The notes under the pieces were generated by a model. The model was not told where the DNA came from and made no database searches. It saw nothing but the letters and a program-made list of their open reading frames with translations. The translations under genes and the position numbers were made by a program. A DNA stretch of 63,398 nt, the filler included, from Trichodelitschia bisporula (lineage: Eukaryota), in assembly GCA_010356995.1 (NCBI GenBank). It is 6 parts of 4 records of this genome, joined end to end, with 100 filler letters (N's around TTAATTAATTAA, not from the genome) between each part and the next. Parts side by side here need not be neighbours in the genome. Positions count along the whole stretch, not along the records: positions 18,380 to 47,463 come from ML996710.1; 5 more parts are not named here. The stretch is one strand, 5' to 3'. Every line of letters starts with the position of its first letter. The stretch's first letter is position 1. Positions 20,033 through 56,005 of this stretch are shown one piece after another.

Positions 20033-22053
20033 TCATGACAGCAGCGCAAATTCTGAAACAACGTCCTTGAGCATGTTGTCAAGAACGACGCACGTGAAAA
20101 ATCCGGGATCGAAGACCACGAAATAAGAGGTTTGGACACGTCGCTAAACGAAAATTAGCGATCCGGACAAATGACAGAAGGAAGGTTGAACTTACGGAAG
20201 GACTTTGCTGGCCGAGAACTTCGGAAATCGACCACGATGCAGTACTTAAAACTGAAAGAGGTGTAACGGCCTTCCCCGACAAACCGGTCGTAATGCTCCT
20301 GCAGTTGGATCCCGTCCCGCAGCAATTCAATGCCCCAATGGACCTCAGGGATCACAAAGTCGATTCGCTGCCCGCCCAATTCCTTGCTGGAAAACTCCGG
20401 GGTGGGAATGACGCGTGCTCTGGTGACCTTGTATATCGTGCGGTAGAGTTCGGCACCATAGGCTGCTTCTGGAGTCTTGGATTCTCGTCGCAGAGCATTC
20501 CCACAAAACGACTTCAGGCCAGTCAAGACACACTCCCGTACGCTCTCGAATGGGAAAGGGCGGGTGAGTTGTGGAACAACGGTCATCGCGGCAAACCTGG
20601 CTAAGGTTAGCTATAATTCGTGCAAAACAGTATAATGGACATACCAGCGATGAACTTCGGTCGGATAAGTATAGACCATGGAACTGCCGTCTTTCACAAC
20701 GGCGTGCAGGTAGCCCTTGACATAGCACTTGCGAAGTGCTTCAGAATTTACGTCCTGTAGCTGAGCGAACCCTTCTATCGCAGCCTTGATGAGAACTTTG
20801 CGGGCATCGGGGTCCTGAAACGTGTCATGAGGAAATCCGCGGTATGCAGCACAGCATCGGATGACGTCTACGAGGCCATCCCTATTGAACAAGAAATGCT
20901 CAAGGGAAGCAGACTGAATTTCCTTTCCATTTCTGACGATAATTTTGCAATCCAGGACCATTGAAGGCTGAAGTCAGCAACACCCAACCGTACAGATTGC
21001 TAAGCAAAAGGATGAGACCCACATGGGATTCCAAGAAATTCTCAATCAGGGCAGTCGCAAGGCCAATGTGACCCTCAGAAAACTTGAACAGCATGTCTAG
21101 GGCCTCATTCGAGATTGATGCGGATATCGCCGTAGTCTTCTTCATCCCCCAGCTCATGAACTCTTCTTGCGAGAAAAACATGCCCACGGAGACAAAAGCT
21201 GACGGACGTAGCCCGACAATGCAATTCTCGGGAAGTGTCAATGGAGTCAATGCACTCTCGTCATTGCCAAGGTCCGCCGAACTGCCATAGCAACAGGCGA
21301 AGACAAACTTGATACTTTGTGGTCTTTTTTGAATTTCTCCAAGACACCCTTGATAGCCTCGTTCCAAAAGATTGCATCAGCGTAACTCGTCTGCCCTTCA
21401 TCGAAAAGAATGTAGGCTGGTGTGCAAAGGACGTCTGTGTGAGCATCCGGCATTAGTTCCTTCAGCTGATCAAACCAGGGTTTCGTTGCCCCTTTAGGGT
21501 AACGGGAAAGAAGATGGACCTGATTGCCTTGGAGACGAAGGTAGTGATAGAGGAGGTCCATGACGCTGGTCTTTCCGGACGCAGGGGTGCCTCGAAGCTG
21601 AACGACACCGGTGCGTTCAAGACGCGCGACAACAGTCTCCAGGAGAGTTGTTCGTGGCTCCAGGCAAAGGTATTGTGCGACTTCATTGTAGGTCAGGATA
21701 TCGAGTGGAACGGTATTTCGCTCGCTCGCACCTCTCGCGATTGTGGCAAAGGATTCGTCTTGGGGCACTTCATTCTGGTTAGGTAGGCCGGGGAAGGATG
21801 AGTTGCTGTCCTCACCAACGTCAAACCCCGAAGAGGGCAGTGCAGCAGCTGTAGTCGGCAGACTGGGCGTGTCGTGGAATGAGAATGCATGATAGCAAAC
21901 TGTGCAGGTTGGATCACCGCCTGCGCCCGCCGGCGCCGAAGCCTGCATGCAAAGGCACCCCATCATTCCTTGCCTGAAGCGGCATGGTCCACGGCACACC
22001 ATGATGGGTGGGCTGGAAGGGCGTGAAAATGGAGGGCGCCGGAATATTTTCAT
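20033..22053 (-). pseudogene. Cys/His header + P-loop NTPase + C-terminal PD-(D/E)XK-like domain (Crinkler/CR-effector-like), with two +1 frameshifts
   Basis: Walker A RGTPASGKTS, Walker B ILFDEGQ, C-terminal PEAAYGAELYR..PEF..RIDFVI..WGIELLRDG..LQEHYDRF..CIVVDFR. Introns 20968-21022, 20597-20644 and ~20143-20195. Frameshifts near 21328 (A6 run) and ~20125. Confidence 0.7.
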
Positions 22054-24010
22054 GATGGATGATAGCGTCCCTAAATCTGGAGTTCTTGATCGCGACTGAC
22101 GTGGGTGTAGGCAGTACTGATGGTGTGAGTTGCTAGGCCTACGTGTTAAGGTAAGGAGGTTCGGTTGCTTGAGAGATAGCTTCTGGCCTTTGTTTATTCC
22201 CCAAGCACATGGAACATCCTTCAATGAATAACACACACGTGGATCCTTGGACACACGCAAAAAAAAGCCCTATATCGACGCACGAATCGGATCCAAAGCT
22301 TCCAGTCAACCGATCATCACTTTGCCTTGATTTGATACCACACGGAAGCAAGGCTATGATGGTTAGAAGGGTTTTCGGCCGACGGGCTCTCTGTACAGTA
22401 AGTGACGATCAGCCACGTTCCGACGTAGCCACGCATATAAATCAAGCCACCGAATCCACTCACTCGGTAGGTATCGGCCCGACCTTTAATCCGAGAGCCA
22501 GTACACTCCGCAGTCATGTCTTTCTCTGTCTCCCAGATGCCTCTGCCTCCCGGCGTAACGTTCGCTGACATCAACGTATCGCTCGATGATGTGGGCGAGC
22601 ACCGGCGTTCGCACGCCCGCGCATTCGCACGCCCGCGCATCGGCGTCAGTCGATAATACTCCGGACACCGCTCCGGGCCCCTTCTGATGGCCCCATCAGT
22701 ATAGCGTCGGACGGCGTACGGCCGGGGGACCTCCGTTCTTCCACAGCCTCGCCCTCGCCCTCCCCAGAAAGACCCCCAGCTACCCCCATCGCGAGCTCAT
22801 TGACCGCGAGTCCTCGGCGCTCAGCACTGCCGCCAACACTACTGAGCTCGACCGCGTTCATCGGTAAGCAGGCCTTCCCGCCCCTTTGCATGAACCGCGG
22901 TCAGGTAGCAGCACAAAGCCTCCCATCGAGAACGGCTTCACTCTCAACGCCAAAGCGGCCGCGAAGTATACACTGATGGAGCCCCTCCCGGCGCTGAACA
23001 TCCGCAACCGCAAGCGCAGCCTGGATGTGAGATCACGGCTGTGACGGCGACAGGCACTGGCTGTGTATGATCTGCCATGGCCGCAGCACCCATGACAGCA
23101 GCATCCGTGAGATCACCTCGTTCAGCCTCGGCGGCACAAGTCACATCACCCGCCACCCAGCCAAGTCCCACCGGATCACACCCTCAGGGTCCCCGCGGCT
23201 CACTACTGGCCAGGAGATTCTTCGACTGGAGCTCGTCCCGAATGACTGCATCCCATAGACGCCAGTCTGCTGTCGACTTGAGCGTGAATAATAACACGTG
23301 ACCTCTCGCTGACCATAGTGGCGGTGGCGGTGGCGGTGCACGACCTCCGAAGATCGTGGAACCAACTCGACTCTACCTAAACAACTAATCTTCCGGTAGT
23401 CTCGCGCTCACCGGGCTCATAACCTGTTGTAACTTTAGGGTCTTGGAATACTGCGATGAGTTGGTCAAATTCCTGCAACCTAACTATCTGCTGATATATA
23501 TACATAAAGAGTGGCGAATATGCTTGCCGCAAACAGAAAGAACTAGAATACACTCGAACTCCGTGATTGCCAATCTGATCCTTCTGGCCCCTTCCAACGG
23601 TCTGAGATTTCGCGCAGCCATTTGTTCCATCCGACTGATGATTCGAGCTTTGCGACGGTTCCTAACGACGAGAGAGCAGAGATGGCACCAAGGGTCTTGG
23701 GGTCGGCCATAATGCTCGTCCGGGGAACGTCGTTTCCACAGCAAGGTCTGCTTCAAGTGGAAGGCAGGGACAAGAGAAGAGGTGGGAAAAGATCCTTTCC
23801 TTTCGTTCAAAGGAAAAAGGAGGAAGGTTAGGGCCGCTTGGAAGTGAGAGGTAAAGAGGATAGAGTCAGAACTGTTGCAGGACCAAAATTGGAGGTTGAA
23901 GATGATGGTTGCGTGCCTTGAACAGATGATCAACGTCACCTCATATGTCGAGGCAGTGGAGCATCGAACGACGACAGGTCTTCCCACATATTGCTGGCTA
24001 CAAGTTTCGA

Positions 24011-26043: not shown

Positions 26044-27493
26044 CTACCACGCAACCAGCAACCCCGTGATGCCCATAATCTCGTCCAGGTTGCCATCCTT
26101 GTCCTTCATCCTACTGCTATTAGTCCTGCCTTGACCTCGTCACATGTAACTCACCCTGGGTGTTGCTTGAAATTGTAACGGGCGCGGATCCACGTCCGAT
26201 CGCCGACCTTCAGCTGGACGCCGTTCGGATACTTGCAGCGGCTCTGCCCTTGAATGTGGGGAATGTCGCTGTTGCCGTGCTCGCCGCCGCCGTGGCCGCC
26301 CATGCCGCCAGTGTTGTTGCTGTAGATCGGCTCGCTGGCGCAGATGACCTTGTCGTTAAGGAAGATGTCGATACCGACGCCGCCGTCGTGCATGTGGCCA
26401 CCGGTGGCGAGAATCGTACCCTCAACGTTGGAAGTCCATGGTGTACTCGACTCCTCCATGACATCCGCCTTGGGCCGCATCTCCGCCGTGATGTTCGACA
26501 CGCCCCACGGGTTGGTACCTGTAGAGCACGTGCCGGCGGTCGACGAGGAAATTGAAGCCCAGATGAAGCGCGACTTGCGGTGGTTCGGCGCCTCGGCGGC
26601 GGGCAGCCACTCAAAGTCCATTGTCAGCCACACCCACTTCTCGCGGTCCTGCATGTTCATCAGCTGCGTCGACAGGATGAGCTTGTCTTGGGCGCCGAGG
26701 TGGTACGCCGACAAGATGGTGCTTTCGTTGCCGAGCGAGTACGGGATGAGCGACTTTTCGTTGCCGCCCATGAACAGCTCGTCAATCGGGTACGTGCTAT
26801 TGCAGAGTGGCGTAACGGTGGGGCCGGTAGCGAAGATAAGCGCATGGTGGAACCAGGCCTGTTGGTCAGCCAGAGCCTTCAGTGTTGAGAGTTCTACTCA
26901 CCCCGTCGGCGTTTTCAGCCGGCTTGCCATCAGCGTACTCCATGCTGCCAGTCACCGAGAGCAGGCGGCAGTCGCCCTCGCACGGCCTCTTTCCGCCAAT
27001 CTGGAAAGTATGCGCCATGCCGCGCACCAGCAGCAGATCCGAGTCGAGGTTGCGCTCGCTGATCGGCGGGATGCGGTACGGCCCGTAGCGCACCTTTGTC
27101 CGCTTTGCGCCGGGAAAGGCATCGCCGGGCGAATGCTGCAGATCGGGTACGGTCGCAGTAGGTGCGCCGGTGGCGGTCGGCATGAAGGACGAAAGCAGCG
27201 CGCCGGCGGTCTGCAGCGTGGTAACGACATTCGTCAGCGAGAGTGTCGCCAAACCCGGAAACTGGCGCTTGCTCAAGGCCTTCTGGACGGAGCGCTCGGC
27301 ATGCGCACGCAGTACCGCATAGGCTGACCATTAGCGACGCGTGTACATCAGTGGCAAACTTACTACTCGGTGGTAGCAGCCGCGGGTTGTCCAGGAAGGT
27401 TGTGACAATCTCCTCGTCCGAGAAGGTATGCACACCGACGCGCTGCGGGGCAGCGGCCGCAAGAGCAGCAAGCGAGAGCAGCACGAACTTCAT
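26044..27493 (-). CDS. Secreted protein with a PHM/DBH-like copper monooxygenase ligand pattern (paralogue 1), 4 exons
   Basis: Signal MKFVLLSLAALAAA; Kex2-like SKR; RYGPY; PCEGDC; after splicing AWFHHA; GGHMHDGG; ICASEPIY; YNFKQHPG-MKDKDGNLDEIMGI-stop. Three canonical GT..CTRAY..AG introns. Confidence 0.8.
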
Positions 27494-29795
27494 GATTGAC
27501 GACGAGCGCAAAGGTGGGTGGGCGAATAATATCAATCTTATGTTTCCCACGCGGCGCCCCCCACTCATCAACCTGGCGCACCCCGCAGGGACCGCGGCGG
27601 CGAAAGCTCAACTCGGGCTGGAGCAAGTGATAGGCGCGTCTGTTTGAGAGCGGTTTAATTACCGGCGCGAGACCGAGTGGCGCACGGCGGAGGCCACATC
27701 GCAGGAAATGCAATGCCCCGCATGATGTGCGCCGGGAAGACCTTCAGACCCGTGGGGAAGGCTTCCAGAATCGCCGGGGCGCGCAATCTGCGGCATAGCG
27801 ATCGCACATAAATTAGGGCAGGGTTGAGAAAATGGGCGGTCGCGTGAGTCCCCACTCTGTGCACCACAGGCTGTCGATTGCGAAATGAATGCGACCGAGT
27901 GCTAGACGAGATGGATAGTCAAGCGGTCATGGTATTGAGGTTGGGCGATAGGGGTCACGTGCCGCTTCCACGGGACGGGCGGGGTGAAGGGGATGCTCGT
28001 CCCATCTGAAATATCCAGCTCCAGGTTCGACTCTGCCCTGGCTTGGCTGAAGTGAAGAGGCCTGAGATTGAGGTCGGAGATGAAGTGCCGACAAGACCGC
28101 CGAGTCGAGCCGGCGATCCCAGTGGCCGGGGCGGTGCAGGTTGTTGACCAGACGAGGGTACTGAGCATTCTATCGCTACATCGGCGCGCCTGACAGAGGG
28201 AAAGGTTAATGTGCGCATTGATTGTGCTGAGGCCAACTGTGTCCGAGTCACCATGGAATCCTCGAGTGGGATCCAAACGGCCAGTGGTGGTTTGGGCTGA
28301 GGACGGACCGGCCGGAATCACGCAAATACCGCCCACTCGGCTTGCGGCTCCCTAGCGCTACTTATCTTGCATGCAGACCGTGAATAGCAATGCCAGATTT
28401 CATTGGAGCACCTCCAAGCTCGATGGCCTAACGGTACACTCGCACCAGATTGTAGACGCTGGACGTTTAACCACCTGGGACGTTGGCCGCAGCCAGAATC
28501 GGTAGAAGGGCCGAAGTGACAGGCGAACACCCCAAGAATTGCCCTTGGTGAAAACCGGTCACTTAGAGTTCCGGTTCACTCTGTCGCTTCCCGACCCGCG
28601 TTCCGGCTGACGGCAATATCCGGGCTTCATTCGGCCGTTAAACAAGATGCAGTTTGGTAACCGGTACCATATGCAAGGTCTGGGGCATCTCCCGTCCCAA
28701 TAGGCTCTGCGGGATTGATGTCTGAGAGTAGACGTAGGTATATCGAGGTGCGACCATAGCATATGGTAGCAGGCAAACTCCATATGGCGTCGTCGGAGGT
28801 CAGATCTTCGCTTACTTGATAGCTTGATCAGCATGGAAGATGAGAAGCGATTTCGGCAGTTCAGCGTCGTTGCATACCACTGTACGTCAGCCTGCGCTTC
28901 ATATTGTATGTCGGCGCTTGGCCCTTGGGGTTATGACTACTCATTGGATACGGTTGTGAGGCAATCAGAGAGACGACTTGTGCCCTGGGGGTGTGGGCAT
29001 CGACAAACTAGCCTGCGGTTACCATGGTCGCGTCACGTCTGCCATAGTACGGGGAGTACAGCCCGTGAGCTCTAGTATCTTTCATGCCAGCATGAAGCAG
29101 CGGCGAAGCGGTAGTTGGCACCTAACACCTCTGTGTCGATGCGCTGCCTCGGCGCGAGTTTAGACACATGGTGGACATGCACGATGCTGTAGGGACACTT
29201 GTAACACCAAGTCGCGCTGTTTGATGGATGAAATCAAGAGAGAAGAGTATGTGCATTGAATAGTATCTATAGTCGAACCGGCGATGCCAGAGAAGAGAGA
29301 CCTTGCGCTTGATCGTTGTACATTATTGTATGGTGGTTTTCCTCTGTATTTTGTCCTCCGCGCGTTTCTCCGCTGCGGTGCAGTCACGTGATACGGCGGA
29401 TTGTGCCCCGCTTCATTTCGCTTTCTCTTCCACATCTCGCACACCTCCCACCTTGCCACCTCACTTCGCGTCGCGATCGCATATCGTGTACCGCATTTCC
29501 TTCTCTACCACATTCCAATCCCTTGTTTGACATCTTCATCTCTCACTATATCATCACGGCCGCCCCTCCAACTCCGTGTCCACCTCCCTCCGGCGCTTCG
29601 CCTCTCTGCCTCTCCACTTCTCGTCTACTGTACACCTTCACATCGTCTGCCCTCCCTCTTCAGTATCCGCCTCTCCGTTCCTTCATCCATGTCCCTTGCC
29701 ATGGATCGAACTCTGCAGTATCTGTATCTTGATTCTATAGACGCACTCGTCTATTCTACAGCTGAAGCTAACATCCATGCTACAGCGACGCGACC

Positions 29796-31746
29796 CTACC
29801 CGCTCGTCCCCTTCTTCGGATTCAGCAAGGCGTTCAGCGTCTCCATCAACCCTCCCCCACCCAGCTGCGCCAGTGTCTGCTGCAATGCTGGCTTGCCATC
29901 ACCCTGCCACAGCGCCGGAAAGGTCGACGGCTCCTTGTACCCCGTATAGTTGTTCACATTGTCGCCCACCGGCGCGGCGTTGCTCGCTCGGATCGTCTCC
30001 GCCTTGCACAGTCGCGCGCCGCGTGCCTCCATGCGGTCGGCGTTGATACCTGGCGTGACATAAAACAGCATGCCGGGATCCCATTTGTCCTTGATCTGTG
30101 ACAGCCGGTCGTAGTGCTCGCCCCAAAACGCCTTCTTCCAGTCCGGGTTGCCGTACCATGCCTATACTGTTAGCTCCGTCAGTGAGTGCCAGCAAAACTT
30201 ACCTCGTTCAGGTACGCCCCTGTGTTCGGTGCGAGCTCCCGTAGCGAGTCAACGTTGGGAATCGTCGCGCCGTCGCCCACACCCGTCGCGACGATGTGCA
30301 CCAGCGCCTTGCGGAACGCCGGGTTTACGCTCGTGTCCTTACCGCCCGTTCGCACCTTGTTGCCTGTCGTGAAGTGCACGCGCAGTTGGCCGTCGAGCAG
30401 CTTGATTGGCATCGCCCGCTCAAGCGCTGTGGCGAGGCGCTTCTCATCCGCCAGATGCTCCGCACCGAGCAGCCGGGAGTCCATGGCGGTGCGGCCGGGG
30501 CTCACCAACATCATTTCGCCGGGGCCGTGCCGGCGACGCAGTGTCGGACTTTTCGGTACCGTCATGGCCGCTTTCGGTGCCGTGGTAGCCGCCTTCGGTG
30601 GCGCCGTCGCTGCCTTTGGTGCCGGGCTCCCACCAAAGAACCCCTGGATGAGATCAGCGGCCCCCCGGAGGTTCGGTAGTCCCATCGTCTGCAAGGACTT
30701 TGCATCAAATCCCGGCATCGCCTTCATCTTGGCCAGCATTGGTGCGAGCACACCTGGCATGCGCAGTGCGTTGAAGCTCGTGGCCACCAGCGTTGCCTGC
30801 AGGGCGTTCGGGTAGATGAAAAAGTAGCCCTGGATGCCGGCGGCGTAGAGGCGCTCTGCCTGTGCTGTAAAGTAGGCAGCTGGCGCATACACGCTCTTCG
30901 TGTCATCGTACGCCGTCGTGTTGAGCCAGAACTTGAACGGGACAGCGCTCGGCAGCGGAAACACGCGGAACGTCGCCTCCACCACCACGCCAAAAGTGCC
31001 GCCGCCGCCGCCGCGTAGTGCCCAGAAGAGGTCCGGGTTGGACACGGCGTTGGCTACTGTCAGATTCCCGTCCGCCGTCACCACCTTGTACTCGAGCACG
31101 TTGTCCGCCGCGAGCCCCAGGTCTGACGACAGCGGCGAATGCCCTCCCCCCTGCGACCAACCGCCGGCAACGGACACCTCGCCGTGTGCAGCAATGAGCG
31201 CAAACAGCCCGCTCCCCACGGCCGCCGTCGTGATTTCTGTCGCCGTGACGCCGGCGCCGATGGTGATCGCCGTATCCTGGCCTGCCTTTGGCTTGATGAC
31301 GTTGGTGACGGTCTTGACATCGACCGGTTCAGCGCCTTTTACTGTCGGCGTGAACGACTCCAACAGGCGGATGCCCTTCATGCCGGTGACTGACAGAAGG
31401 ATACCAGACGGCGCGTCTTGCCTAGGATGGTCAGCGTCCAGTTCTCCTGCCTCATTCTCCCCACGCACCGTCCCATAAAGTCGTGCCCGCTGTTGATTAT
31501 ACTAAGGCGTACATTATGCTTCGCCGCGAACCGCACCGCGCGCTGCACATGCTCGACGCGCGACGCCTCGTAGATGAAGTTGGGATGCTTCTTCACACCG
31601 CTCTCAATAGGCTCCGTCCCCTTCAATTCCGCCTTCCATACGTCGGGCGCCGGCCAGTCGGCGTCGGTCGCCAGCACGCGGCACCCGGCTGGCGCCTTCT
31701 GCGCGCGCGCAACGCCGAGAGTCAGCAGCAACAGTAGATAGCGCAT
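29796..31746 (-). CDS. Secreted FAD-linked oxidoreductase, berberine-bridge-enzyme/VAO family, 3 exons
   Basis: Signal [24 protein letters not shown] (covalent-FAD His); [33 protein letters not shown] tail [41 protein letters not shown]. Confidence 0.9.
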
Positions 31747-32961
31747 GGTTGAGGTTTGCATCTGCGATTCCCGGGCTTAAAGGTTTCATTTCGCGCGCCA
31801 GCGCCGGGGAGTCGCACGTACGTGGGCTGTCCCTATCCGCCTCGTCTATCCCATCCGCCTGTTCCTACCCCGCAGTGCATCCCAGAAGCAGCGAATACGA
31901 ACAGCCCAATTTCCCAACCTGCTTGGACTTTGAGGTTAAGCAACGGCCGGGATGTGCGCCTAGGGCTGGCCATGGTCTTGGGCAATCAAGGCGCGACTCT
32001 CCGTGGCGCGTGCTCGATATGGAAAGGCAAAATCCGCAAGTCGGCAGACTCCATCGGCGGGCGGTTTTTGTCTTATGGTGGCGACATGTACCTGGTTCAC
32101 GAATTGCTTCTGGAGTACGTGTCGTGGGGCGCTTTTGAGTAAATTTTTTGCCCCTCTTCCATCACCCATATTCGAACTTCCAGCGCCGCAAGGCTGGAGT
32201 CTGTCCCGGATCGCCCCCACACCATGGCCTGTAGGGTTTGCCCTAGCCGTATGCGACTCCCGACAAATGCTCCGAAAAGGTCGTGAGGCCTTTGCTTTGT
32301 TGCATGGACCGCATGCGGGGGCACCACATTTTGACCTTGGCCGCCTCCGGCCATGTTCACTCGCGCTGAGCTTGCGAGACTTTGTTGGGCTTCGCCTTCG
32401 TGGCGCAACTTGCGCATTGCTTCTCACACTCTATCCATATTGGTGTCCGCTGCTCTATGTGGGGAAACGGGGATTTGTACCTCCATCTGGAAGGGCCTGC
32501 ATGTCTTGCAGTCGCGTAGGCGCTGTGGCCGGCAAATCCGAATCCTAGTTCGCCGTCGCCCGGCCGCAATCTTCGTTGCATTCTCCGACCTGGTCTGTCT
32601 CTGAAGTCTGTTGGTTGCTGAGTTCGCTGGCACTTTGCATCCGCTCTCTGGCGCTTTTTGAATGTGACTGCATTTTAAACACACCTGCCAGGCTCGCCCA
32701 GTCTCACGGTCGGCAAAACGCTCCGGCGCACACCGGACGGGATCGAAACAATGAAACGGAAGAGACCGGGCGCCTGAGCATCGCTTTCGCAGATATCGGC
32801 GCGCCATTGAATCGCACCAACAGTACCAAACGTCGATGATGCCATGCTCCATCCTGCCAATGCCCCCCATGCTTCAGCCGCCTAATGCTCAAAAGAATCC
32901 AAGGCCGGAAACGCCCAATATGCTCAATAACGCTCACAATGCCCATACAACTCCGTTATCC

Positions 32962-34151
32962 TCAGCGTGCCAATCCGATGTCCTGACTCCGTTGCGTCTC
33001 CATCTCCTGCCCGTTTCCGTGGCTGCTCGGTGTCCTCCCCCGCCACTCCTCGTCGTTTGCCTGCTCCACCCAGTATTTTGTCTGCACGATCTCCGATAGT
33101 GGCGTCTCATCGCCACCGGCGGCGCCCGAGTTGCGGCGCTTTGTCGAGAAGCGCACGCCTATCGCCCGAAGCCAGTTCGACATGGTGAACTTGAGGCACG
33201 GTATGCACGCAGCAGTTATAGCAACGGTGGCCTCGATATGGCTGTAACATTAGCGGAGGCTCAGAGACGAGGAGGGCGACTCACGTCAGGCCAGTGACGG
33301 TGATAGGTTCCAAATGGCGTCTAACGACTTGACGTCCACCCTCGCAAACAGTATCGCCTTCATAATTCCACAAGCGCTCGCAAAGAGCCCCATGGCCATC
33401 AGTATTCCCATCACGACTCGTTCGCGCAGCGGGCGGTTCAGCTGTCGGATGATGACGATTGGGAGCAGGGCGCAGATGAAATCAGTCGCGATATGCAGGC
33501 TTATAGGTATCAGTACACCCTCTCTTCTCCTCAAAAACATAGCTGAGACTGCCAGAATGTCGTCTATCAGCGTCGAAGACGCCAAGCAATGGCTCGTATT
33601 TTGCAGGCCAACCGAGTACCAATTCGTCGCGCTCAGTGAGCACATGACTGCATGCGATACAGTTCCGATAACTGCCGTGATGAGCAATAGAGCGAGCAGT
33701 GCGTACATCGTGGGCCTCCACCATACGCCGCATTCGAGGCGCAGCAGCAGCAGCAGAACAATGCTCGCCTTCGTGGCTGCCATCGTCCACAAGCACAGTA
33801 TGTTACCAATGGTGGACAAGCGAATAGCCTGGAAAATGATGTCCACTGGGATCGCGGTGATATGCTTTAGGCGGGTTCGAAATATTATCACCATAGCCAA
33901 GGTATAAGCTGTAATGGAGAACACCTAGCTGATCAGCGGAGACCAGAGATGCCAATTCGGACCACGTACTATGGCCGCGATGATGAAGTGATCATCGTAC
34001 TTCAATCCGCCCGCCCTCAAGCGCGTCCATATTCGCAGGGCACCACTGCCAACATGAGGATGGTGATGGTGACGGTCGTGGACACCAGGCGCGACGCGTT
34101 CTGATCGAGCTTCAGGAGCTGGTTGATCTGTTCAACCATACCCTCGTCCAT
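32962..34151 (-). pseudogene. PTH11-like (fungal rhodopsin-domain) integral membrane protein with apparent frameshifts
   Basis: LRIWTR..LKYDDHFI, TKASIVLLLLLRL, ATDFICALLPI..IRQLNRPLRER..LMAMGLFA, HIEATVAITAACIPCLK. Single-base losses near 34041 and 33287 and a damaged internal splice donor. Confidence 0.8.
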
Positions 34152-36049
34152 GTTGAGGGGATGCCGACGCGACGTGCGCGCGCAGACGTCGGGCTCGTAG
34201 CGGTCGGTGGTGACAACAGTTTGAACGTAGGACAGCCGGGGAATTGGAACCGGGGCGCAAGAAACCGTTCATGGGGGGGACGCTTAGGTTTTTACCTGCA
34301 TACTTGGGGTGTGCTTGGGGTTCGGGCCCGAATGATGAAGGTAAGCGTCGGCGCTGCTGGCGTAAGGCGCTGGATGGTGGCGCCCCATGAAGAACCGTTG
34401 CAAAAGAGGAATATAATCACGTTTTGACGACGATGAGGCATCAGCGCTTGGCACTGGTGTCGTATCGTAGATGGCACAGGAGCTAGCTCCTATCATTGTC
34501 GCTTGCTGTGACATACCACGGTAAATGCTGTCCATTGTACGGATTATGTACCTTTGCGGCGGGGAGGTAAATAAAACGGCGGAGAGCTTACCGTAAGGGG
34601 TTATGTGCTAAGCTTTTAGCCTCGTCCTGCTCGTCACTGCAGAATTCTCTCCTGACCTTTTTCCGACGATGAGCAGATACGAGCCACGATTCATCGCACC
34701 GATATCCACCGCACTGCATGAAAAATGATAATTCGCAGAGCATCGGCGTCACTGGCGATCTCAATGCCACAGCGGGGGTGCGGCTGAAGGTTCGACTGGA
34801 TGCTAACCTCGAGTAGATCTACCGTGGTAAGGAGCTTCGTGAGAACCATTAGCTCGCTTATGGCGATAGAAATGCGGGGGACCATGCAAAATGTACCACG
34901 ATGGGAATGGCTCGTTGCCGGTGGCGTTCAGTGGCGCGTGGAGTGGACAGATCAAAAAGCAGCGAAGAACCTTAAAAAAAGGTACCATGATTCTGCAGAC
35001 CCAGTGAAGTGCAAAATCTTACATCTTGCCTTCGGATCGTGAGAGCAACTGCGACTATAATTGTGACTGCATTCGTGAGTGTAGTATCCATGTTTTCGTC
35101 CAGCTTTCCCCAATCCACTGGCAATATTCAATGACCTGACTCTCCGTGCATCAAGAACCTTCATCAGTCTCCGCCGTAAGCCAATCTGATCGACAACGCC
35201 CATCGTCCTAGCGTGTTAGAGTATGTGACGCGAGTAATGGGCTGCCGAATGATGTCCGCGCATGCAAAAGTTGACTTACTCCAGATGAGCGACACAGCTG
35301 TTCAAGGGACTGCTAGTTCTACTAGATGTTGTTGTCTTCAGTACAAAATGGTGAGATCGGCATCCAGCTTTCAAAAGAAGAGCAAGGCGCAGTCTTGCGT
35401 GAATGCTGAAGCGACAGCCGGATACCAATTCGGGTGCGATCACAAGTTCCGCTGGCCTTTGAAAATATCGACATGTCCCGAAGCCTCACCATCCTCCCCG
35501 AATTGGCCACTCGGCACACGGGTACTTACTGCTCGAAAGTAAGGCCAGTTTTCTATCACTGTCCCGCCATCAACTTTGAACAACACAGGGTGACGTCTGA
35601 CAGTTGCAGCGTCGTCAGTCCCAGTTCCACTAGTTCTCATACCCCGCAGCCGCGGCCAACAGTTCCATAGCTTACAACGAACCAGAAGTCCCGACTCCGG
35701 TGTCAATACCAGCATCACAGCTCCCCCGCAACCGCTTGATCGACCCCATGTTTCCCCCTTCCGGTTCCCTCAACCGATCTCCTTAACAGAACGCAGTCCC
35801 CGGATCCGCACAGCCTTCCCGTGGTACCCGAGCCCTATGGCCACCACAATAGCCTTGCACCAACCCCATCTATCCCCACGGTCACTTATATTACTTTCGG
35901 GCGAGCAACCGCTCATCCTCATGCCGTCGCCCAAATACCTCTTTTGTCATGCTCCGCGTTAGCGACAAATCCAATCAAGCGATGAATATAAACCACCTCA
36001 AGCTGCCCGTGTTCCGCCGTCACCAAGCCGCTTCCTCAAACCACCCAGC

Positions 36050-37494
36050 ATGAAGTCCCTCCTTCTAACCCTCCCGCTCGCGCACGCCGCCGTCGTGACG
36101 CACCTCCTCCGTAGGTCACCCGCCGTCCCCGCAGCGCCGCTCTAACCGTCAAGAACCCCGGCAGTTCGATCTGTTCGGCCTGCAGGCGGGCATGGCCGGG
36201 CCCGTAAAGCCGGCCATCCTGAAGACTAAAAGCACGCCCCTCATTGACTCCGGCGCCGTGCGCGAGAAGCTGCTCTGGGGCCCTTTCCCGCTTCAACCAG
36301 CAAATGTACCCCCCCCATATCCCGCCGACTCTGACCTCGCTAACCGCCCCTCCCTCAGGGCTCTCACCCCGCGGGCACCACCCTCAAGCTCGACCCGGCT
36401 TCCGATGTCATTTCGACTAAAATCTCCGGCCTGTGCACTGACTGCATGGTTCTCTTTGCCAAAGCCGACCTCGCTACCAAGACGGGCGAGAAGGCGGACA
36501 TCGGCCAGGGCGTCTACTCGCACCACGTCATCATCACCGACATCGGGCACCCGATGGTCATGATGCCCGTGACGGTGCGCTGCCCCGGCGGCGGCATGGG
36601 CGGGTTCAACTTCGGCGGGATGATGGCCGGGTCGAAGGGCGGGGACGCTGCGGCTAAGGGCGGCAGCGGAATGGCGGGGATGAGCCATGGTGGGCATGCC
36701 CCGGTGGTGCAGCGGCGACAGGCGAGCGACAGTCCGCTTAGTGGGCTGCTGGGTGCGCTCGGCAAGCTGGGTAGCACGCTTTCGACGCTTGCGCCGCCCA
36801 TTTCGGTGTTTGTGGGCCAGGGGGACGAGGGCTCGGGCTTGACGTTCCAGACGAAGGGCAGCACGCTGAAGAGCGGGTTCTATCTCAGTGCGAAGGACCA
36901 GTTGAACATGATGGCTGAGGTGATCAACTACAAGAATGTGGGGCAGGATGTGTACATCACGCTTGAGTATGAGTATATTCCTAACCTACCGACGCGGCCG
37001 AAGGAGTATCTGGATGTGGGTATGGGTGCCATCAACGTCGATCCTTGTGGCAAGGTTGCGCTGCGTAGGTCACCCCGGTATCCCATTCCGCTGGATGATG
37101 CTGACCATCAGACCCCCCCGCCGACAAGCCCGTCAAGTACACTTCCCTCCCCTGGGACGTGGTCGGCGACGGATACCTGCTCGACATCCGGCCGCATCTG
37201 CACGACGGCGGCGTGAACATGACCTTCTCGGTCAACGGCAAGGTGGCGTGCTCATCGCAGGCCGTCTACGGTGGTACCGACGGCGGCGCTGTCATCAACG
37301 GCGAGAAGTGGGAGACCATCACGGCGTACACGCCGTGCGGAGACCACGTTGCCATCAAGAAGGGCGACAAGCTCACGATGGAGGCGTGGTACGATTTGAC
37401 TGCTCATAGGCTGCGTCCCCAATCCACCGATCATGCCGAAAGTGCGGAGGGCATGGCGCTGGCGAACTTCATCTACGCGAAGCAGGTTGCTTAA
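36050..37494 (+). CDS. Secreted protein with a PHM/DBH-like copper monooxygenase ligand pattern (paralogue 2), 4 exons
   Basis: TATAAA at ~35987; signal MKSLLLTLPLAHA; WGPFPL; LCTDCMVL; GVYSHHV; RPHLHDGG; ACSSQAVY; GDKL..WYDLTAH; C-terminal EGMAL. Introns at ~36112-36153, 36306-36358 and 37065-37111 keep one frame. Confidence 0.82.
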
Positions 37495-47052: not shown

Positions 47053-47563
47053 GCGGGAGTGTGAGAGGGTGAGAGTATGCATTGCGTGTATAGTTAGGGA
47101 GATAGAAAGAAAAGCAGAGAGATAGCAAGGGAGAGAGGAGAAGAGGAGAGGAGGTGAGTCGAGACGATTTGATGAATACAATTGATGAAGAGTGTTGATT
47201 GAACAATAGTGGGAGAGAAAGAGACGAGCCACGGTTTCGCCCATATTGTCGGGTAAACAATGACCCGGGCCTGGTTACTCACTCTCAGCCCACGATAGAC
47301 GACTTGCATACTGTTCACTCTGTACACCCCACTGTAGCATATCGCCTTTGCCGCTTATTGATGGCCTCCATCTCGCCATCCTACATCGTCTCATCTTGTC
47401 TCCCACCACCGCTGACCAATTGGTCACCCAAATTTCTCGTCCAATTCGCTTTCAATTCCCACTNNNNNNNNNNNNNNNNNNNNNNNNNNNNNNNNNNNNN
47501 NNNNNNNTTAATTAATTAANNNNNNNNNNNNNNNNNNNNNNNNNNNNNNNNNNNNNNNNNNNN

Positions 47564-48636
47564 GGAAGCAACAACAAAAGCTCTTTAGCGTACGCTGCCG
47601 CCGTCCCCGCCGCGAATGGCTGCCAGCTCTTATTCTTGTGAGAGTCCGAGTAGTCGCAGATTCCCCGCACAGGCAGGCATGGAAAACTGTTCATCACCCC
47701 GGCGGCTTCCATTTCGAAGCACAGGACGCCTCCGAGTTCCTTGCTGACTTTGTCGCGTTCCTTGGCATCGCGCATGACTTGATTCCCCGAGGCGATCGTA
47801 CCGTAGTGAACCATGACATGTTCGCCACGTGTCTGGCGCCGCACGCTATGTTCTTCCTTACAATTCTTGCAGTTTTCCTCTCCCTCCTCATGGTTGTACA
47901 CAGGGTCGTATAGGACATCGGGCCCAGCCTTGTCGCGAGCGAAAAGGGACTGGTTGCTGAGGTTTGCAAGATAATCTAGGAAAACAACTCTTCCTTTCAG
48001 ATGGCTGGCCTTCAGACTCACCACCGCGTTCAGCAAGGCCATTGGGGGCGCGTTCAGAAATCCAGTTCGTTCAACTCCGTCCGGCCTGGTCTTGCCCAAG
48101 TCGTACTGGATCACTCCGCCACAATCCTTGGACGGCTGGCATACAACAACGTCCCCAAGCCGGATGTCGGCTTTTGCGCTCGGCACACCGCCTCCAATGC
48201 CGACCAAGACGCCGAATTGAACCGAAGGGAAGGTTGACTGCATTCGAGCAACCGCCGAGGCCGCCGAGTTTGTGCCCGTGAGCCCCAAGGCCACGATCAC
48301 CGTATTGTGTTCGCCAATGCGGCCGAGCGTGTAGCTATTGGTATCTGATGCGTTCCGGGGGAGACGTTTGTGCTCCTCATCGAGCATTTCCTGGGCTGCT
48401 GCAAGTTCAATGTCAAGCGCGCAAATCCATCCTATCGTATAGTCTTCGTGACGAAGTTGGCGGACTGGCTCTCTATTAGTGGCTCTCTGGGGGGCAAGTG
48501 GTAAAGATGAGGTCTGGCTGACACTGCTCGCGGGGGCAGGCGCGGGAGTGTTGCCGGCAACAGGTAAGGAGGGTTGCGAAAGGCTGGAAGAGGCACGAAA
48601 GTGGCCCTGTGTCCGGATCCGCTTTGCAGGTGGCAT
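47564..48636 (-). CDS. PNP_UDP-domain protein, N-terminal part of a fungal NLR; 3' end lost in the assembly gap
   Basis: YTIGWICALDIELAAA, LVGIGGGVPS, HYGTIASGNQVMRDA, LCFEMEAAG, RGICDYSDSHKNKSWQPFAA; open frame up to the gap. Confidence 0.88.
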
Positions 48637-49283
48637 CTTGGAAATAATGATTCTAGTCAAAAAATTGCGGACTTGTGAAAATGCAGGAGCGGAACTCGAG
48701 GTTAAGGGCGAGACTTTGGGGCTTCCGGCTGAACTCAACTGCGGGGCAGAATGCCAAGAATGAGGCTGTGAACTGTCGGGCGCGGAGGGGGAGGACAAGA
48801 TTGGAGGAGACACAACCACATGCCACTGGGCATCAAGTTCTCCTACCAACTGATCAGTTCACAGACGAAGATTTCGCTGGAGGACATGTCCGGTTGTTCA
48901 TCCATGTGCACCGCCCACGATGCTTGCGTCGTCTATGCCCGCGTCGTAGGTGCTGTACGGGATATCGAGACTGACCAGGGCTCTAGCATAAACAGGCTCG
49001 GGAGGATGCCGGAGTGGCGGTCGTGCAACGATACAAGGCTGACTGCGATGCTATGAACATACACGTCAAAAAGCCTTTAGTAAAGCGTTTTGCTGCACAG
49101 ACATTCCGCAATTTTCGGGGCCTGATACTACTATCACGACCCAAGCCCGCCAACGTAGCCGTCTTACCTGGTCAATTTTTGAGATCCCATCGGCCACCGT
49201 TCATTAGACAGTGAATAAATGGTGCCCCTCCGGACAGCAACAAGCCGACGTTCTTAGTTTACAGCAGCGCAGAGCTGCCTCCT

Positions 49284-51831: not shown

Positions 51832-53181
51832 TGTGAATGTTTTGATGGCTTTGCCGAAGTGAGGTGAGATTCGAGGTTCATAGCAGGCAGGGTATTTAAG
51901 TCTGGGGGAAAGTTCTAGTTCTAGGCAGACATAGACAGACTCAATGCTCAAAGCTATGACTATTTCAACGCCTCATGAAGGATGCAGCTCGAGACGAAAT
52001 TATTGGACAACTGAAGCAACTTTGGAAAGTGAGCATTTCACATTCTCTAGTCATCGATTTGGTCCTGCAGAGACCTGTCTTTGTGTTGAACACACCGTTG
52101 ATTGGATTGGATTTTCACCTATACACACCCACGCGGCGGCAGCACCGTACTGATGTTTACTAGTCCTAACAGCCAGAGGGGTGGGCGGGACGACCCGAAG
52201 ACCGAGTTTAGACATTTATCTGTCGCTTGATGTCGTCGCGTTGTTGTCGCTTGATGTCAGTGAGGAAGCGGCTTCTGCAGACCATTTTTCTTGTTCCCTC
52301 GTAGGCGCTTCTCCCCCGATACGAGGCCACAAAAGCTGGTGCAGCCTACTCCGCATGGACGGAAGGTGCAGCACAGCCAAGCACCTCACGCAAGAAAATC
52401 GCCTTACTGTTTCGTACCATGGTAGTTTAAGCACGAACCACACGACTCTTCGAGCTCCGCCGGCATCTGCCTTCGGGAGGGGTGCAGTAATGTACAAATC
52501 CGCAGTGGTCAACCGACATGATGGGAAAACTTTTGAGAGCAGGGCTCGTCGACACCCGGGTACAGCGGAGCGGACAATGCTTTTGCCAGCTGGCCACCTG
52601 CCCTTCCATTCATACTGTGGTAAATTTAAGCCTTGATTATTGGTGGACGTGTCGCCATGCAGTATGCATGTAGACTGCAGAGGTGCGTTGGCATGTTTCA
52701 GTAGAGTAGGCCTGCGCCTTCGAAGAAGAGGAGTTGAGGCTGTGCCTCGTGAGATGGAGGCGTGAGGCTCTGCCTTTGAAGGGGAGGGGTGGCTCTCATT
52801 CCCTTTCTGTTCATTCTCCGCTCAGCCAACTTCAAAACGCACGCTTCACGCTTCACGCTTCACGCATCATTCGGGCCTTTCTTCTTGGCTGTTTGTACAA
52901 CATCTCCCGCTATTATCGGATCAGAAAGCCACATCATCGGTACGAATGCATTTCTCTAATCACTGCCTCCTCTGATTCGCGATAGTCCAAAACCAACTAG
53001 GCTAGGCAAAGCCAGGAGCCTCCTCGTTAACAAATTTATTAAGAGCCGTCGGCCCACTATCACCGTTCTTCACAATATCGCTTCGCCGTCTCCGTCGAAA
53101 GTGCGCAGCCCTGTGGGTGGCGTGAAGGAGGGGACAAGGAGCAAAAGACTCATCATTCGGGAGGGAGTCTCGCCTCCCCGC

Positions 53182-56005
53182 ATGGAAAGACAGCAACTAG
53201 ACAAGAAGGTAGGTTCTCAGTTTGCATGGCCCACCTCGTGGTCTACAGATATCGAATGCAAACCCACTGACAATGTGGAGCTCTCTCATGCTGACACGGC
53301 TGCTGTTCGGAGCCTACTGCGCAAATTGAAGCATTCGGAATACACAATAGGATGGATATGCGCACTCCCTATCGAACTCGCGGCTGCCCGAGAGATGCTG
53401 GATGAGGAGCACCAGGATCTCCCTCAGAGTCCACCAGATGACAATATCTACCGACTTGGCCGCATTGGCGAACACAATACTGTCATTGTGGGCTTTCCGG
53501 CCGGATTCACGGGCTCCTCACAGGCGGCCCGGGTGGCCAGTCAAATGCAGACGACTTTCAAGTCGATTCGGTTTGGCCTTATGGTGGGCATTGGAGGTGG
53601 TGTGCCGAGCCGCAGACATGATATTCGACTCGGAGATGTTGTCGTGAGTCAACCATCGAATGGCCATGGCGGAATAATCCAGTACGACTTTGGCAAAACA
53701 AGACCGGACGGGTTTGAGCGGACTGGCTTCTTGAATTCACCTCCAACCGCTTTACTGAGTGCTGTAGCGAGTCTGAAGGCCAATCGCGACTTGGAAAAAA
53801 AATTCCTACGCCACCTTTTGAAACCGACCCGTCCACCTTGGTTTGCACAGAATGCCGGACCAGACGTTTTATATTGCGCTAACTACAACCATGACCGACC
53901 TGGTACTGATGACTGTCGGGAGTGCAAAACGGAGCATGTCGAACAGCGACAGCCACGTGAACATTTCATCGTCCATTACGGCACCATAGCATCCGGAAAT
54001 CAAGTCATGCGAGATGCTACGACAAGAGACAACGTCAGCAAGGACCTTGGAGGTGTACTCTGCTTTGAGATGGAGGCGGCAGGGCTTATGAACCATTTCC
54101 CGTGCCTTGTTGTGCGGGGCATTTGCGACTATGCGGACTCGCATAAGAATAAGAACTGGCAACTGTTTGCGGCAGGGCTAGCAGCTGCGTATGCAAAAGA
54201 GGTCCTTTTGTTGATGCCGGCAGCCGAAGTCGAGACAGGATCATCTGCGGTTGAGTTGATGAACCAAAATCTTAGTAAGTAGCCTTCACCCTTTCTTAAC
54301 TGGTAGAGGTCATAGGGAAGGTAGGGCTAACCGCAGTCGCTAGAATTCAATAAGGTTCTTGGAAACATACCCACGGCTGTAGAAGCGCCTTTCAATGCAC
54401 GCAAACGAGAACACGACACTGCCTGCCTCCCTGATACCCGTGTCGCACTTCTCAAGCAGATATATGAATGGGCTGATGGCATGGACTCCCCAAATATATT
54501 CTGGCTGAGCGGGTTGGCCGGTTATGGTAAGTCTACGGTTGCGCGAACAGTGGCCGCCAGATGTTTCAAGAAAGGCCTTAGCGCCAGTTTCTTCTTCACC
54601 AAAGGCGGCGGAGATGTTGGCCACGCCGGCATGTTTGTTACAAGCATCGCAGTGCAGCTTGCAAATAATGTGCCGGATCTAAAGCCGGTCATTTGCGATG
54701 CCATCGCCAACAACCGCAACATCGCAAGCCTGTCTCTACGCGAGCAGTGGGACCGTCTTGTTCTCGCTCCTATATCGCTGTTTGGAACCGATCAATCCTC
54801 TCCAACATTTCTCCTGGTTGTCGACGCTCTTGACGAGTGCACAGATGAGAGCGATGTGCGGATCATTCTTCAGCTTTTCGCCGAACTTCGAGGATCGCAC
54901 CAAACCAGGCTGCGAGTATTTTTGACGAGCCGACCCGAAGCTCATATCCGGGATGGGATTCAGCATATACCAGAAGTGGAACACTACGACTTTGAACTGC
55001 ATGGCATTCAACAGTCGGTTGTCGAACATGATATCCGCGTTTTCTTAGGGCACGAGCTTCGCCGTATTTCCTGCGAGTACTTTGATGGCACTGACTGGCC
55101 AAGCGCGCAGGACATCATTGGTCTTGCTCGGAACGCAAGTGGCCTATTCATCTGGGCTGCTACGGCATGTCGCTTTGTTAGGACGGGGAGACAATTTGCC
55201 ACCGACAGACTGGCTTCCCTCCTAAACCAATCCCCCACCGAGGGTAACACGCCGGAGAAGCAGCTCGACTACATCTATTCCACTGTCCTCAAGCAAAGCG
55301 TTCCTGAAGACTTTTCGGAAAAAGAGAAGGAAAAGCTGCGGTCTATGCTGAAACCTCTACTTGGAAGCATTGTAACCTTGTTCTCTCCACTTTCCATCCA
55401 GTCCTTGAGCAACTTGATGGAAACTTGCGGCAACGAAGTAAGCCAGACACTGCGCGATCTCCACGCCATTTTCGACATTCCAAAAGAGCCAAATCGCGCA
55501 CTCCGTTTACACCACCCTTCATTTCGGGACTTCCTTCTGGATAAAAAAAGAAGCGGAAGTGCCAAGTTCTGTGTTGACGAGAAGCAAGCACATCAGTCTC
55601 TTTCTGCGCACTGCATGCGACTTATGTCCAAATCCCTTAAGCAAGACTTGCTGGAAATTGGCCGTCCGGGTGCGCCTGCAACAGAAATCGCGAACGATCG
55701 ACTAGAGCGATGTCTCCCTGCTGAAGTACAATACGCATGCCTCTACTGGATCCAGCATACTCAGAAGGGTGGCTCCCAGCTTAGAGATGATGACCAAGTT
55801 CATCGGTTTCTAAAAGAGCATCTTCTTCATTGGCTTGAGGCGCTTGGATGGATGCAGAAGGTTTCCGAAGGGTTTCATGCCATCGTGTCTTTGGAGTCCA
55901 TGATATCGGTAAGCTGGACGTAAAGCAGAGTGGGGATACTTGGCTGATACTTGGTTTAGGCGCAGAGGTGTCCGCGACTATCGGAGTTTGTTCATGACAT
56001 GAAAC
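53182..56005 (+). CDS. HET-E-like NLR: PNP_UDP effector + NACHT, C-terminal sensor (probably WD40) lost in the gap; exact start uncertain
   Basis: Complete PNP domain; intron ~54275-54343; CLPDTRVALL; Walker A GLAGYGKST; Walker B LVVDALDEC; LTSRPE; GLFIWAATAC; HHPSFRDFL; QYACLYW; LHWLEAL; intron 55909-55959; FVHDMK. Confidence 0.92.

Follow-up and report, generated by a model that had tools for sequence, protein, structure and literature searches.

The window analysed here, a stretch of 63,398 nucleotides joined from parts of the genome of the fungus Trichodelitschia bisporula (GCA_010356995.1), carries two genes, referred to below as gene 1 and gene 2, whose products had been proposed in a sequence-only reading to be secreted proteins with a copper-ligand set resembling that of PHM and dopamine-beta-hydroxylase (DBH). 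The assignment of both products as divergent fungal proteins of the copper monooxygenase fold is now supported by their predicted fold, the conservation of the candidate ligands and remote homology, from which we infer copper binding itself. The gene models, obtained by manual splicing and comparison with the deposited proteins, are as follows:

26044-27493, minus strand: gene 1 (product P0001), four exons, 440 amino acids
27493-27364, 27323-26902, 26858-26155 and 26110-26044, minus strand: coding exons of gene 1, with the stop codon at 26044-26046
36050-37494, plus strand: gene 2 (product P0004), four exons, 433 amino acids
36050-36110, 36154-36305, 36359-37064 and 37112-37494, plus strand: coding exons of gene 2, with the stop codon at 37492-37494

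The introns of gene 1 (40, 43 and 44 nucleotides) have GT..AG borders, and those of gene 2 are of 43, 53 and 47 nucleotides. The hand-spliced product of gene 1 agrees with P0001 at every residue, while for gene 2 exon 3 matches P0004 with 100% identity and the modelled product has the same length; both deposited entries are annotated as 'hypothetical protein' of T. bisporula. Two sequencing runs of one sample (X1 and X2) carry only the guessed label 'RNA?', with no run on record as RNA, and they were taken as transcript assemblies because their contigs skip introns. At least five of the six introns were found to be spliced out precisely at the modelled borders, with GT..AG ends: introns 27324-27363 and 26859-26901 of gene 1 and all three of gene 2 are absent from the contigs, and 26111-26154 of gene 1 is not among the joints listed. 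Since the contigs skip introns at these borders, both genes are taken to be transcribed and spliced as modelled.

The gene 2 contig also includes a spliced leader of approximately 730 nucleotides (window 35126-36049, plus strand) with three further GT..AG introns (35221-35284, 35350-35416 and 35539-35603) and ten upstream ATG codons, the longest open reading frame (ORF) among them being of at most 70 amino acids. This may be a long 5' untranslated region, or a separate non-coding transcript fused by the assembler. The gene 1 contig extends more than 1.3 kb upstream of the ATG (27494-28815, then from 28941 onward, minus strand) and omits 125 nucleotides at 28816-28940 with the non-canonical ends TT..AC; possible explanations of the extension are a long leader, an upstream gene and a join made during assembly.

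The two proteins share 25.6% identity over 211 amino acids (blastp, E 3.5e-17), and by this similarity gene 1 and gene 2 are regarded as true but distant paralogues. No third copy was found in the window by tblastn, and no plasmid sequence matched P0001 in a search with the same program.

Candidate Copper Ligands and Their Conservation

All of the motifs listed in the sequence-only reading were located in both proteins, as read from the spliced sequences and from an alignment of relatives. They comprise GPY in the gene 1 product and GPF in that of gene 2; a cysteine motif (C158-x3-C162 and C97-x2-C100, respectively); a His-His (HH) pair in the contexts AWFHHA (H188/H189) and VYSHHV (H126/H127); the tetrapeptides QLMN (residues 249-252) and EVIN (258-261); a His-x-His (HxH) motif in GHMHDGG (H339/H341) and PHLHDGG (H335/H337); C-x-S-x3-Y and GD...Y(N/D)...H; and a Met near the C-terminus in DEIMGI (M431) and AEGMAL (M421). 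The remark that the HH motif of gene 1 is invisible in the ORF track was correct for lists of ORFs opening on a start codon and incorrect for the stop-to-stop list, in which the pair is visible since the intron leaves the frame open. The positions of the candidate ligands, named after the two copper sites of PHM (CuH and CuM), are:

26844-26849, minus strand: gene 1 H188-H189, CuH-type HH pair, by conservation and by alignment with the corresponding pair in bacterial PHM-type proteins
26655-26666, minus strand: gene 1 Q249-L-M-N252, with Q249 probably corresponding to the third CuH His and N252 a conserved Asn
26388-26396, minus strand: gene 1 H339-M-H341, CuM-type HxH, by conservation and hhalign
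26074-26076, minus strand: gene 1 M431, CuM-type Met, by conservation, profile alignment and structural end offset
36521-36526, plus strand: gene 2 H126-H127, HH pair, by alignment column mapping
36917-36928, plus strand: gene 2 E258-V-I-N261, by alignment column mapping
37195-37203, plus strand: gene 2 H335-L-H337, HxH, by sequence and alignment
37453-37455, plus strand: gene 2 M421, CuM-type Met, by sequence, alignment and structural end offset

Conservation was counted in an alignment of 63 near-full-length fungal relatives, numbered here and below according to the gene 1 product. H188 is present in 61 of these proteins, H189 in all 63, H339 in 62, H341 in 60 and M431 in 61; N252 (61), Y363 (63) and C295 (63) are conserved to the same extent. 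Being retained in 60-63 of 63 relatives, the motifs lie far beyond chance. Three pairs of cysteines, C158/C162, C203(204)/C295 and C357/C392, co-vary and are lost together. Where ligands are lost, the losses likewise coincide: P0123 is without H188, H341 and M431, P0094 is without H188 and H341, and several are also missing from P0088. Both window proteins retain the HH, the HxH, the Met, all six cysteines and the remaining invariant residues.

A second set of relatives was collected from actinobacteria, 19 loci in all, using the pattern [TA]GGH[ML]HDGG and the alignment of the C-terminal domain as query. The HxH-D-G-G of these proteins is thus built into the search, and the HH, E218, N252, Cys, Tyr and Met, each retained in 19 of 19, are independent of it. 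With this proviso for the bacterial HxH, the near-invariance of HH, HxH and Met anticipated for homologues was found in both sets. A CuM-type triad and an HH pair, in the order known from PHM, thus appear to be present in both proteins.

Predicted Fold

Models of the two proteins were obtained with AlphaFold2 from family alignments, with a mean predicted local distance difference test (pLDDT) of 86.1 and a predicted template modelling score (pTM) of 0.84 for the gene 1 product, and of 81.5 and 0.81 for that of gene 2. Searching the PDB with Foldseek returned PHM first (E 1.6e-8, probability 1.00), with DBH near and proteins of the PNGase F type at approximately 1e-5. By VIA-align, the gene 1 model gave its highest scores with 6ala_C (Z 17.3, root-mean-square deviation (rmsd) 3.3, 238 residues aligned) and 4zel_A (Z 17.2), followed by the open structures of PHM (Z 14.4-15.1, rmsd 5.0-5.5) and PNGase F (Z 9.2); the corresponding Z scores of the gene 2 model were 16.0, 15.3, 13.1-14.1 and 8.1. 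Between 233 and 243 residues of the two models could be aligned to PHM or DBH. The expected two-domain beta-sandwich, with PHM and DBH as the best structural matches, was thus recovered for both proteins. In addition, counted back from the last residue aligned, the C-terminal Met sits at the same offset as M314 of PHM, both for gene 1 (440-431 = 323-314) and for gene 2 (433-421 = 326-314). By sequence, a comparison of P0001 with the PDB produced chance matches only (E>=0.65).

The PDB entries that fit best are two PHM mutants in complex with citrate, H108A and H107A, and one chain of DBH. Both models superimpose on entries of the 6ala/4zel_A type (rmsd 3.3-4.0) better than on open PHM (rmsd 5-6.5). 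We take 6ala and chain A of 4zel to be closed forms, and if this is so the predicted arrangement of the domains resembles the closed state. A 2025 review describes, in the part of its text used here, a closed structure of H108A PHM and, within the dimer of DBH, a conformer that is likewise closed (PMC12164859).

Remote Homology to PHM-Type Proteins

Because sequence profiles fail to reach PHM, bridging sequences were collected by searching 401 actinobacterial genomes with the Cu2_monoox_C model. Seven proteins were recovered, four of them above the cut-off, and six of the seven were combined in an alignment (A6) whose invariant residues are H65, H66, H140, H261, H263 and M341. Several of these actinobacterial PHM-type proteins (L021-L026) possess a CxxCH motif, as in c-type haem proteins, ahead of the catalytic core.

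Comparison of the fungal alignment with A6 by hhalign gave a probability of 68.6% and an E value of 4.6e-5 over the stretch from HxH to GD. At a lower alignment threshold, a single co-linear path of 266 columns was obtained (probability 57.5%, E 1e-4); the global mode of the program gave a meaningless alignment of 11 columns. Along the N-terminal part of the 266-column path, C162 is paired with the Cys of DDYRC, HH with HH, D242 with the Asp of PGD and Q249 with H140, and along the C-terminal part HxH is paired with HxH, GD with GD and DE(I)M431 with DEM341. The proposed check against Cu2_monooxygen and Cu2_monoox_C was accordingly divided in its outcome, being negative with the Pfam models themselves (0/69 relatives) and positive in the profile-profile alignment to bacterial PHM-type proteins. 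The window proteins are structural and remote relatives of PHM and DBH that fall outside the PHM/DBH families of Pfam.

The third His of the CuH site had been thought to be replaced in both proteins, and this was borne out, its likely equivalent being Q249 of QLMN in gene 1 and E258 of EVIN in gene 2. At position 249, the 63 fungal sequences have Glu in 50, Asp in seven, Gln and Arg in two each, and Tyr and Lys in one each, with no His in any of them; the 19 bacterial sequences have Glu in 11, His in six and Asp in two. The residues found there are thus of the metal-ligand type in 59 of 63 fungal proteins (Glu, Asp or Gln) and in 19 of 19 bacterial ones, which supports the pairing of Q249 with H140. 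The conserved Asn three residues on, N252, is probably not the equivalent of the third His and would serve some other role.

Relationship to the SURNod19 Family

P0001 served as the query of an exhaustive search by HMMER, which gave 743 cluster representatives at E<=0.001, 308 of them at E<=1e-10. Ten representatives were looked up, and the six that carried names were all of dothideomycete fungi and described as 'hypothetical' or 'uncharacterized' only. SURNod19 (PF07712), one of the profiles suggested for comparison, proved to be the sole Pfam family matched, with borderline scores: at a cut-off of 25 bits, the gene 1 product scored 24.8 bits over its full length and 25.7 with the large exon, and the gene 2 product 22.5 over its full length and 25.5 with the last exon. 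PF07712.19 is also assigned to P0001 in the precomputed table of the sequence collection. The matches are confined to positions ~257-365 of the 377 in the profile, that is, to its last third, and 36 of the 63 fungal relatives match at E<=0.01.

The actinobacterial proteins described above are 25-45% identical over the C-terminal domain, and all ten that were scanned with PF07712 scored above its cut-off (26-46.5 bits). They carry the residues that are invariant among the fungal proteins, namely GNE or GAE, [E/H/D]-x-M-N, GGH[ML]HDGG, C-x-S-x3-Y and the Met. Given the PF07712 matches and these residues common to the bacterial SURNod19 proteins, both window proteins are placed, by sequence, in a divergent fungal branch of the SURNod19 family. 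An earlier pattern scan of bacterial genomes with another family alignment had yielded 20 pattern matches, none of which was confirmed.

Two types can be distinguished among the bacterial proteins (L001-L019), one with CxxxC, GNE and Glu or Asp at position 249, the other without the Cys pair and with GAE or GME and His (six) or Asp (one) at that position. Accessory regions include SLH (L003), Calx-beta (L013) or His-rich N-terminal stretches. The neighbourhoods of ten loci (102 ORFs) showed no recurrence except for S-adenosylmethionine-dependent methyltransferases near four of them; one PepSY_TM protein and, immediately downstream of a locus, one DUF5819 protein were also seen.

N-Termini, Candidate Propeptide and Gly/Met/His-Rich Loops

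The proteins begin with the hydrophobic stretches MKFVLLSLAALAAAAP and MKSLLLTLPLAHAAVV, respectively, and hence both are apparently secreted. Further features of this kind are:

27446-27493, minus strand: predicted signal peptide of gene 1, approximately residues 1-16, a hydrophobic N-terminus recognized by eye
26274-26309, minus strand: Gly/Met/His-rich loop of gene 1, GGMGGHGGGEHG, residues 368-379, in the C-terminal domain
36584-36697, plus strand: Gly/Met/His-rich insertion of gene 2 after C146, approximately residues 147-184, followed by QRRQ, in the N-terminal domain

In the model of the gene 1 product, the N-terminal region is helical (helices within residues 26-89, pLDDT 55-87). The dibasic K61-R62 (SKRQ; window 27308-27313, minus strand), a possible Kex2 site, follows this helical region, and a dibasic site occurs at residues 60-64 in seven of the ten closest relatives, which suggests that the region is a propeptide removed by cleavage.

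The Gly/Met/His-rich loops noted earlier were found in both proteins, at different sites. That of gene 1 has pLDDT values below 50 at residues 369-375 and lies within the Y363-C392 loop, which is Gly/Met/His-rich in many relatives. The loop of gene 2 (pLDDT below 50 at 156-195) belongs to an insertion of 99 residues, located between HH and the G-D/N-E motif, which among the 63 sequences is common only to P0005. KRQ or RRQ is found inside the Gly/Met/His loops of several relatives (QRRQ in gene 2, KKRQ in P0005), and maturation may therefore involve cleavage of the loops.

Genomic Context and Possible Electron-Transfer Partners

Gene 1 and gene 2 are separated by a region that includes a 'fungal rhodopsin domain' membrane protein and the following gene:

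29796-31776, minus strand: predicted secreted oxidase linked to flavin adenine dinucleotide (FAD), with FAD_binding_4 and BBE domains (Pfam E 1.2e-8 and 5.5e-9), supported by spliced contigs

Oxidases of the BBE type can act as a source of H2O2 or electrons for copper oxygenases outside the cell, as with AA7 enzymes and lytic polysaccharide monooxygenases (LPMOs). The position of this transcribed gene between the two copper-protein candidates is given as context only and does not establish a system; the other neighbours are unrelated. The 8.5-kb spacing was considered as a conserved gene pair and rejected, given that the Microthyrium counterparts, P0002 and P0005, are each listed with one contig and these contigs differ in length.

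Two observations on relatives elsewhere point to a supply of electrons. A cupredoxin domain is present in 38% of the members of an Atlas cluster of structural neighbours. P0060, a protein of 1018 amino acids from a public assembly, comprises a complete Nod19-like domain with all conserved residues, joined by a Met/Asp/Ser-rich linker to Ferric_reduct, FAD_binding_8 and NAD_binding_6 domains; it may be a genuine fusion of the copper domain to a transmembrane NAD(P)H-dependent reductase, or else two genes merged into one model. A search for this fusion found no usable match in the Atlas, and a metagenome scan gave 17 pattern matches, none of them confirmed.

Elsewhere in the window, at 47512-48858 (minus strand), 52960-55923 (plus strand) and 21247-22269 (minus strand), phosphorylase-type PNP_UDP_1 domains adjoin NACHT/NPHP3_N and a weak match to the nSTAND3 NTPase. 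These regions are typical of fungal genes like those for NOD-like receptors (NLR-like) and are unrelated to the candidate copper-protein genes.

Comparison with Known Systems

Of the characterized proteins, PHM, the catalytic core of PAM (1phm, 1opm, 1sdw, 6ala), resembles the window proteins in its two-domain beta-sandwich fold, in the order of HH, HxH and Met, and in the offset of the Met, at an identity of approximately 9-10%. According to a passage of PMC12164859, PHM requires H107, H108 and H172 together with H242 and M314; H172, the third CuH His, corresponds to Gln or Glu in the window proteins. These differ further in their disulfide pattern, with three Cys pairs, in their additional Gly/Met/His loops and, in gene 1, in the helical N-terminal region. 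The catalytic core of human DBH (4zel) is matched as well, best by chain A (Z 17.2 and 15.3), but neither window protein has the DOMON or the dimerisation domain, and the differences at the sequence level are as for PHM. The N-glycanases of the PNGase F type share the fold at Z 8-9.2, clearly below PHM and DBH.

The likeness to plant Nod19/MtN19 proteins (PF07712), which have been cited from plant work of 1996 onward (PMC9632046, in the part consulted), lies in the shared family match, which is borderline and in the last third of the profile, and in the signal peptide, which is putative in the window proteins. Arabidopsis NOD19 is described, in a portion of PMC10326430, as having a signal peptide and a C-terminal hydrophobic helix and a function that is 'still elusive'; no such C-terminal helix is seen in the window proteins. 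The actinobacterial Nod19-type proteins have all invariant residues in common with the window proteins and differ from them in their accessory domains (in some a cupredoxin, SLH or Calx-beta) and in the subgroup with His249 and no CxxxC. Among fungi, an excerpt of PMC9632046 calls the function of Nod19-domain proteins 'currently unknown' and presents a Nod19 family of Venturia inaequalis as early-expressed effector candidates; these are secreted dothideomycete proteins with the PF07712 domain, as the window proteins appear to be. V. inaequalis, the apple scab fungus, is a plant pathogen reported to express them early in infection (PMC9632046, same excerpt). The gene 2 product shares 46% identity with P0163 of V. 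inaequalis, a protein not equated here with the family members of that paper.

Proposed Function and Alternatives

On balance, we lean towards both proteins being extracellular copper redox enzymes, either oxygenases or oxidases, that draw on an external electron donor. Their core is a remote homologue of the catalytic core of PHM and DBH, with two predicted beta-sandwich domains. The C-terminal domain would hold one copper at His-x-His and Met, as in CuM, and serve as the site of O2 activation, while the N-terminal domain would hold a second copper at HH together with Glu258 (gene 2) or Gln249 (gene 1) in place of the third His. Electrons would be provided from outside by a small reductant or a redox partner. 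The gene structures and their splicing, the paralogy, the predicted fold, the conservation of residues and the remote homology are shown by the analysis; secretion, copper binding, the arrangement in two sites, catalysis and the source of electrons are what we infer in this proposal.

A bolder and rather unlikely extension is that the proteins represent a new class of extracellular copper oxygenase in which adjacent His2-carboxylate and His2-Met sites are coupled as in closed PHM/DBH. Such a pair would be powered by a membrane reductase or by the neighbouring flavo-oxidase, at the fungal surface or at the interface with a host.

Several observations weigh against the proposal of copper redox enzymes. 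None of the 69 relatives, the two window proteins included, was matched by PF01082 or PF03712 at E<=10, and a profile of the 63 sequences retrieved nothing from the PDB at the same threshold. The probabilities given by hhalign reach no more than 57-69%, and residue 249 is paired with the third His within a low-confidence stretch of that alignment. The third CuH His is absent, and because Gln249 is found in only two of 63 relatives, the N-domain site of gene 1 may be weak or lost. The grouping of the ligands is read from their order and the alignments; the closer fit to the closed conformers of PHM and DBH may be an artefact of prediction; and secretion is judged from the N-termini alone. The P0060 fusion is one predicted protein on one contig, in a single-member cluster, and both it and the Gly/Met/His loops suit copper trafficking as well as catalysis. 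We know of no member of the Nod19 family with a demonstrated metal or activity. Its function was called unknown in papers of 2014, 2022 and 2023, in the parts of those texts consulted (PMC3882225, PMC9632046 and PMC10326430).

Such trafficking is the basis of the main alternative, which we think unlikely, namely that these are copper-handling proteins whose sites and loops capture extracellular copper and pass it to reductases or transporters. An analogue would be Bim1 of Cryptococcus, an LPMO-like protein that takes part in copper uptake. This would account for the disordered Gly/Met/His loops of both proteins and for the similar Y363-C392 loop of many relatives, but the loops vary in place and length and are absent or short in many others. 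The association in P0060 of a Nod19-like domain, a Met-rich linker and a module of the ferric/cupric-reductase type points the same way, although it comes from a single unverified gene model and is equally compatible with the supply of electrons to an enzyme. The microRNA miR398b, which serves the copper economy, targets Nod19 in bean and co-regulates plant Nod19 with copper proteins (PMC3882225, in the part consulted), a point that agrees with the redox-enzyme reading too. Against copper handling, conservation of the full CuM-type triad and of the HH pair from fungi to actinobacteria suits redox catalysis better, and relatives with electron-transfer (cupredoxin) domains likewise favour redox catalysis over simple binding.

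The possibility that one or both proteins are degenerate, non-catalytic paralogues, that is, pseudoenzymes or effector-like binders in which the scaffold has been kept, appears improbable, with gene 1 the likelier candidate because of its rare Gln249. In its favour, several ligands have been lost in P0123, P0094 and P0088, and the Venturia relatives are classed as effector candidates, as far as the excerpt goes (PMC9632046). Both window proteins, however, keep the full complement of HH, HxH, Met, six cysteines and other invariant residues, and both genes are transcribed and correctly spliced. Very improbable, in our judgement, is a metal-free role of the PHM/PNGase F fold on glycans or glycopeptides, as a PNGase F-like amidase or a lectin at the cell wall or host surface. 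It would be consistent with apparent secretion and with the two-domain fold shared by PNGase F and glycan-active enzymes at Z 7-9.2, yet the scores with PHM and DBH are roughly double (Z 13-17 versus 7-9), the invariant residues form the His/His/Met pattern of a copper site, and the profile alignment leads to PHM-type proteins.

Taking the two proteins as probable extracellular copper redox enzymes, their link to the PHM/DBH fold and to copper-type residues turns what has been an 'unknown stress protein' into a testable hypothesis of extracellular copper redox chemistry; our search, made within a library of open-access papers, found none connecting Nod19 to the PHM fold. The variant site of His-His with Glu or Gln, together with the predicted closed arrangement, bears on the question, currently debated, whether catalysis by PHM and DBH proceeds in a closed, binuclear state, as it is outlined in part of PMC12164859. 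Were the proposal of a coupled-pair copper oxygenase to prove true, a biochemical function could be assigned to the Nod19 family as a whole, in plants, fungi and bacteria alike.

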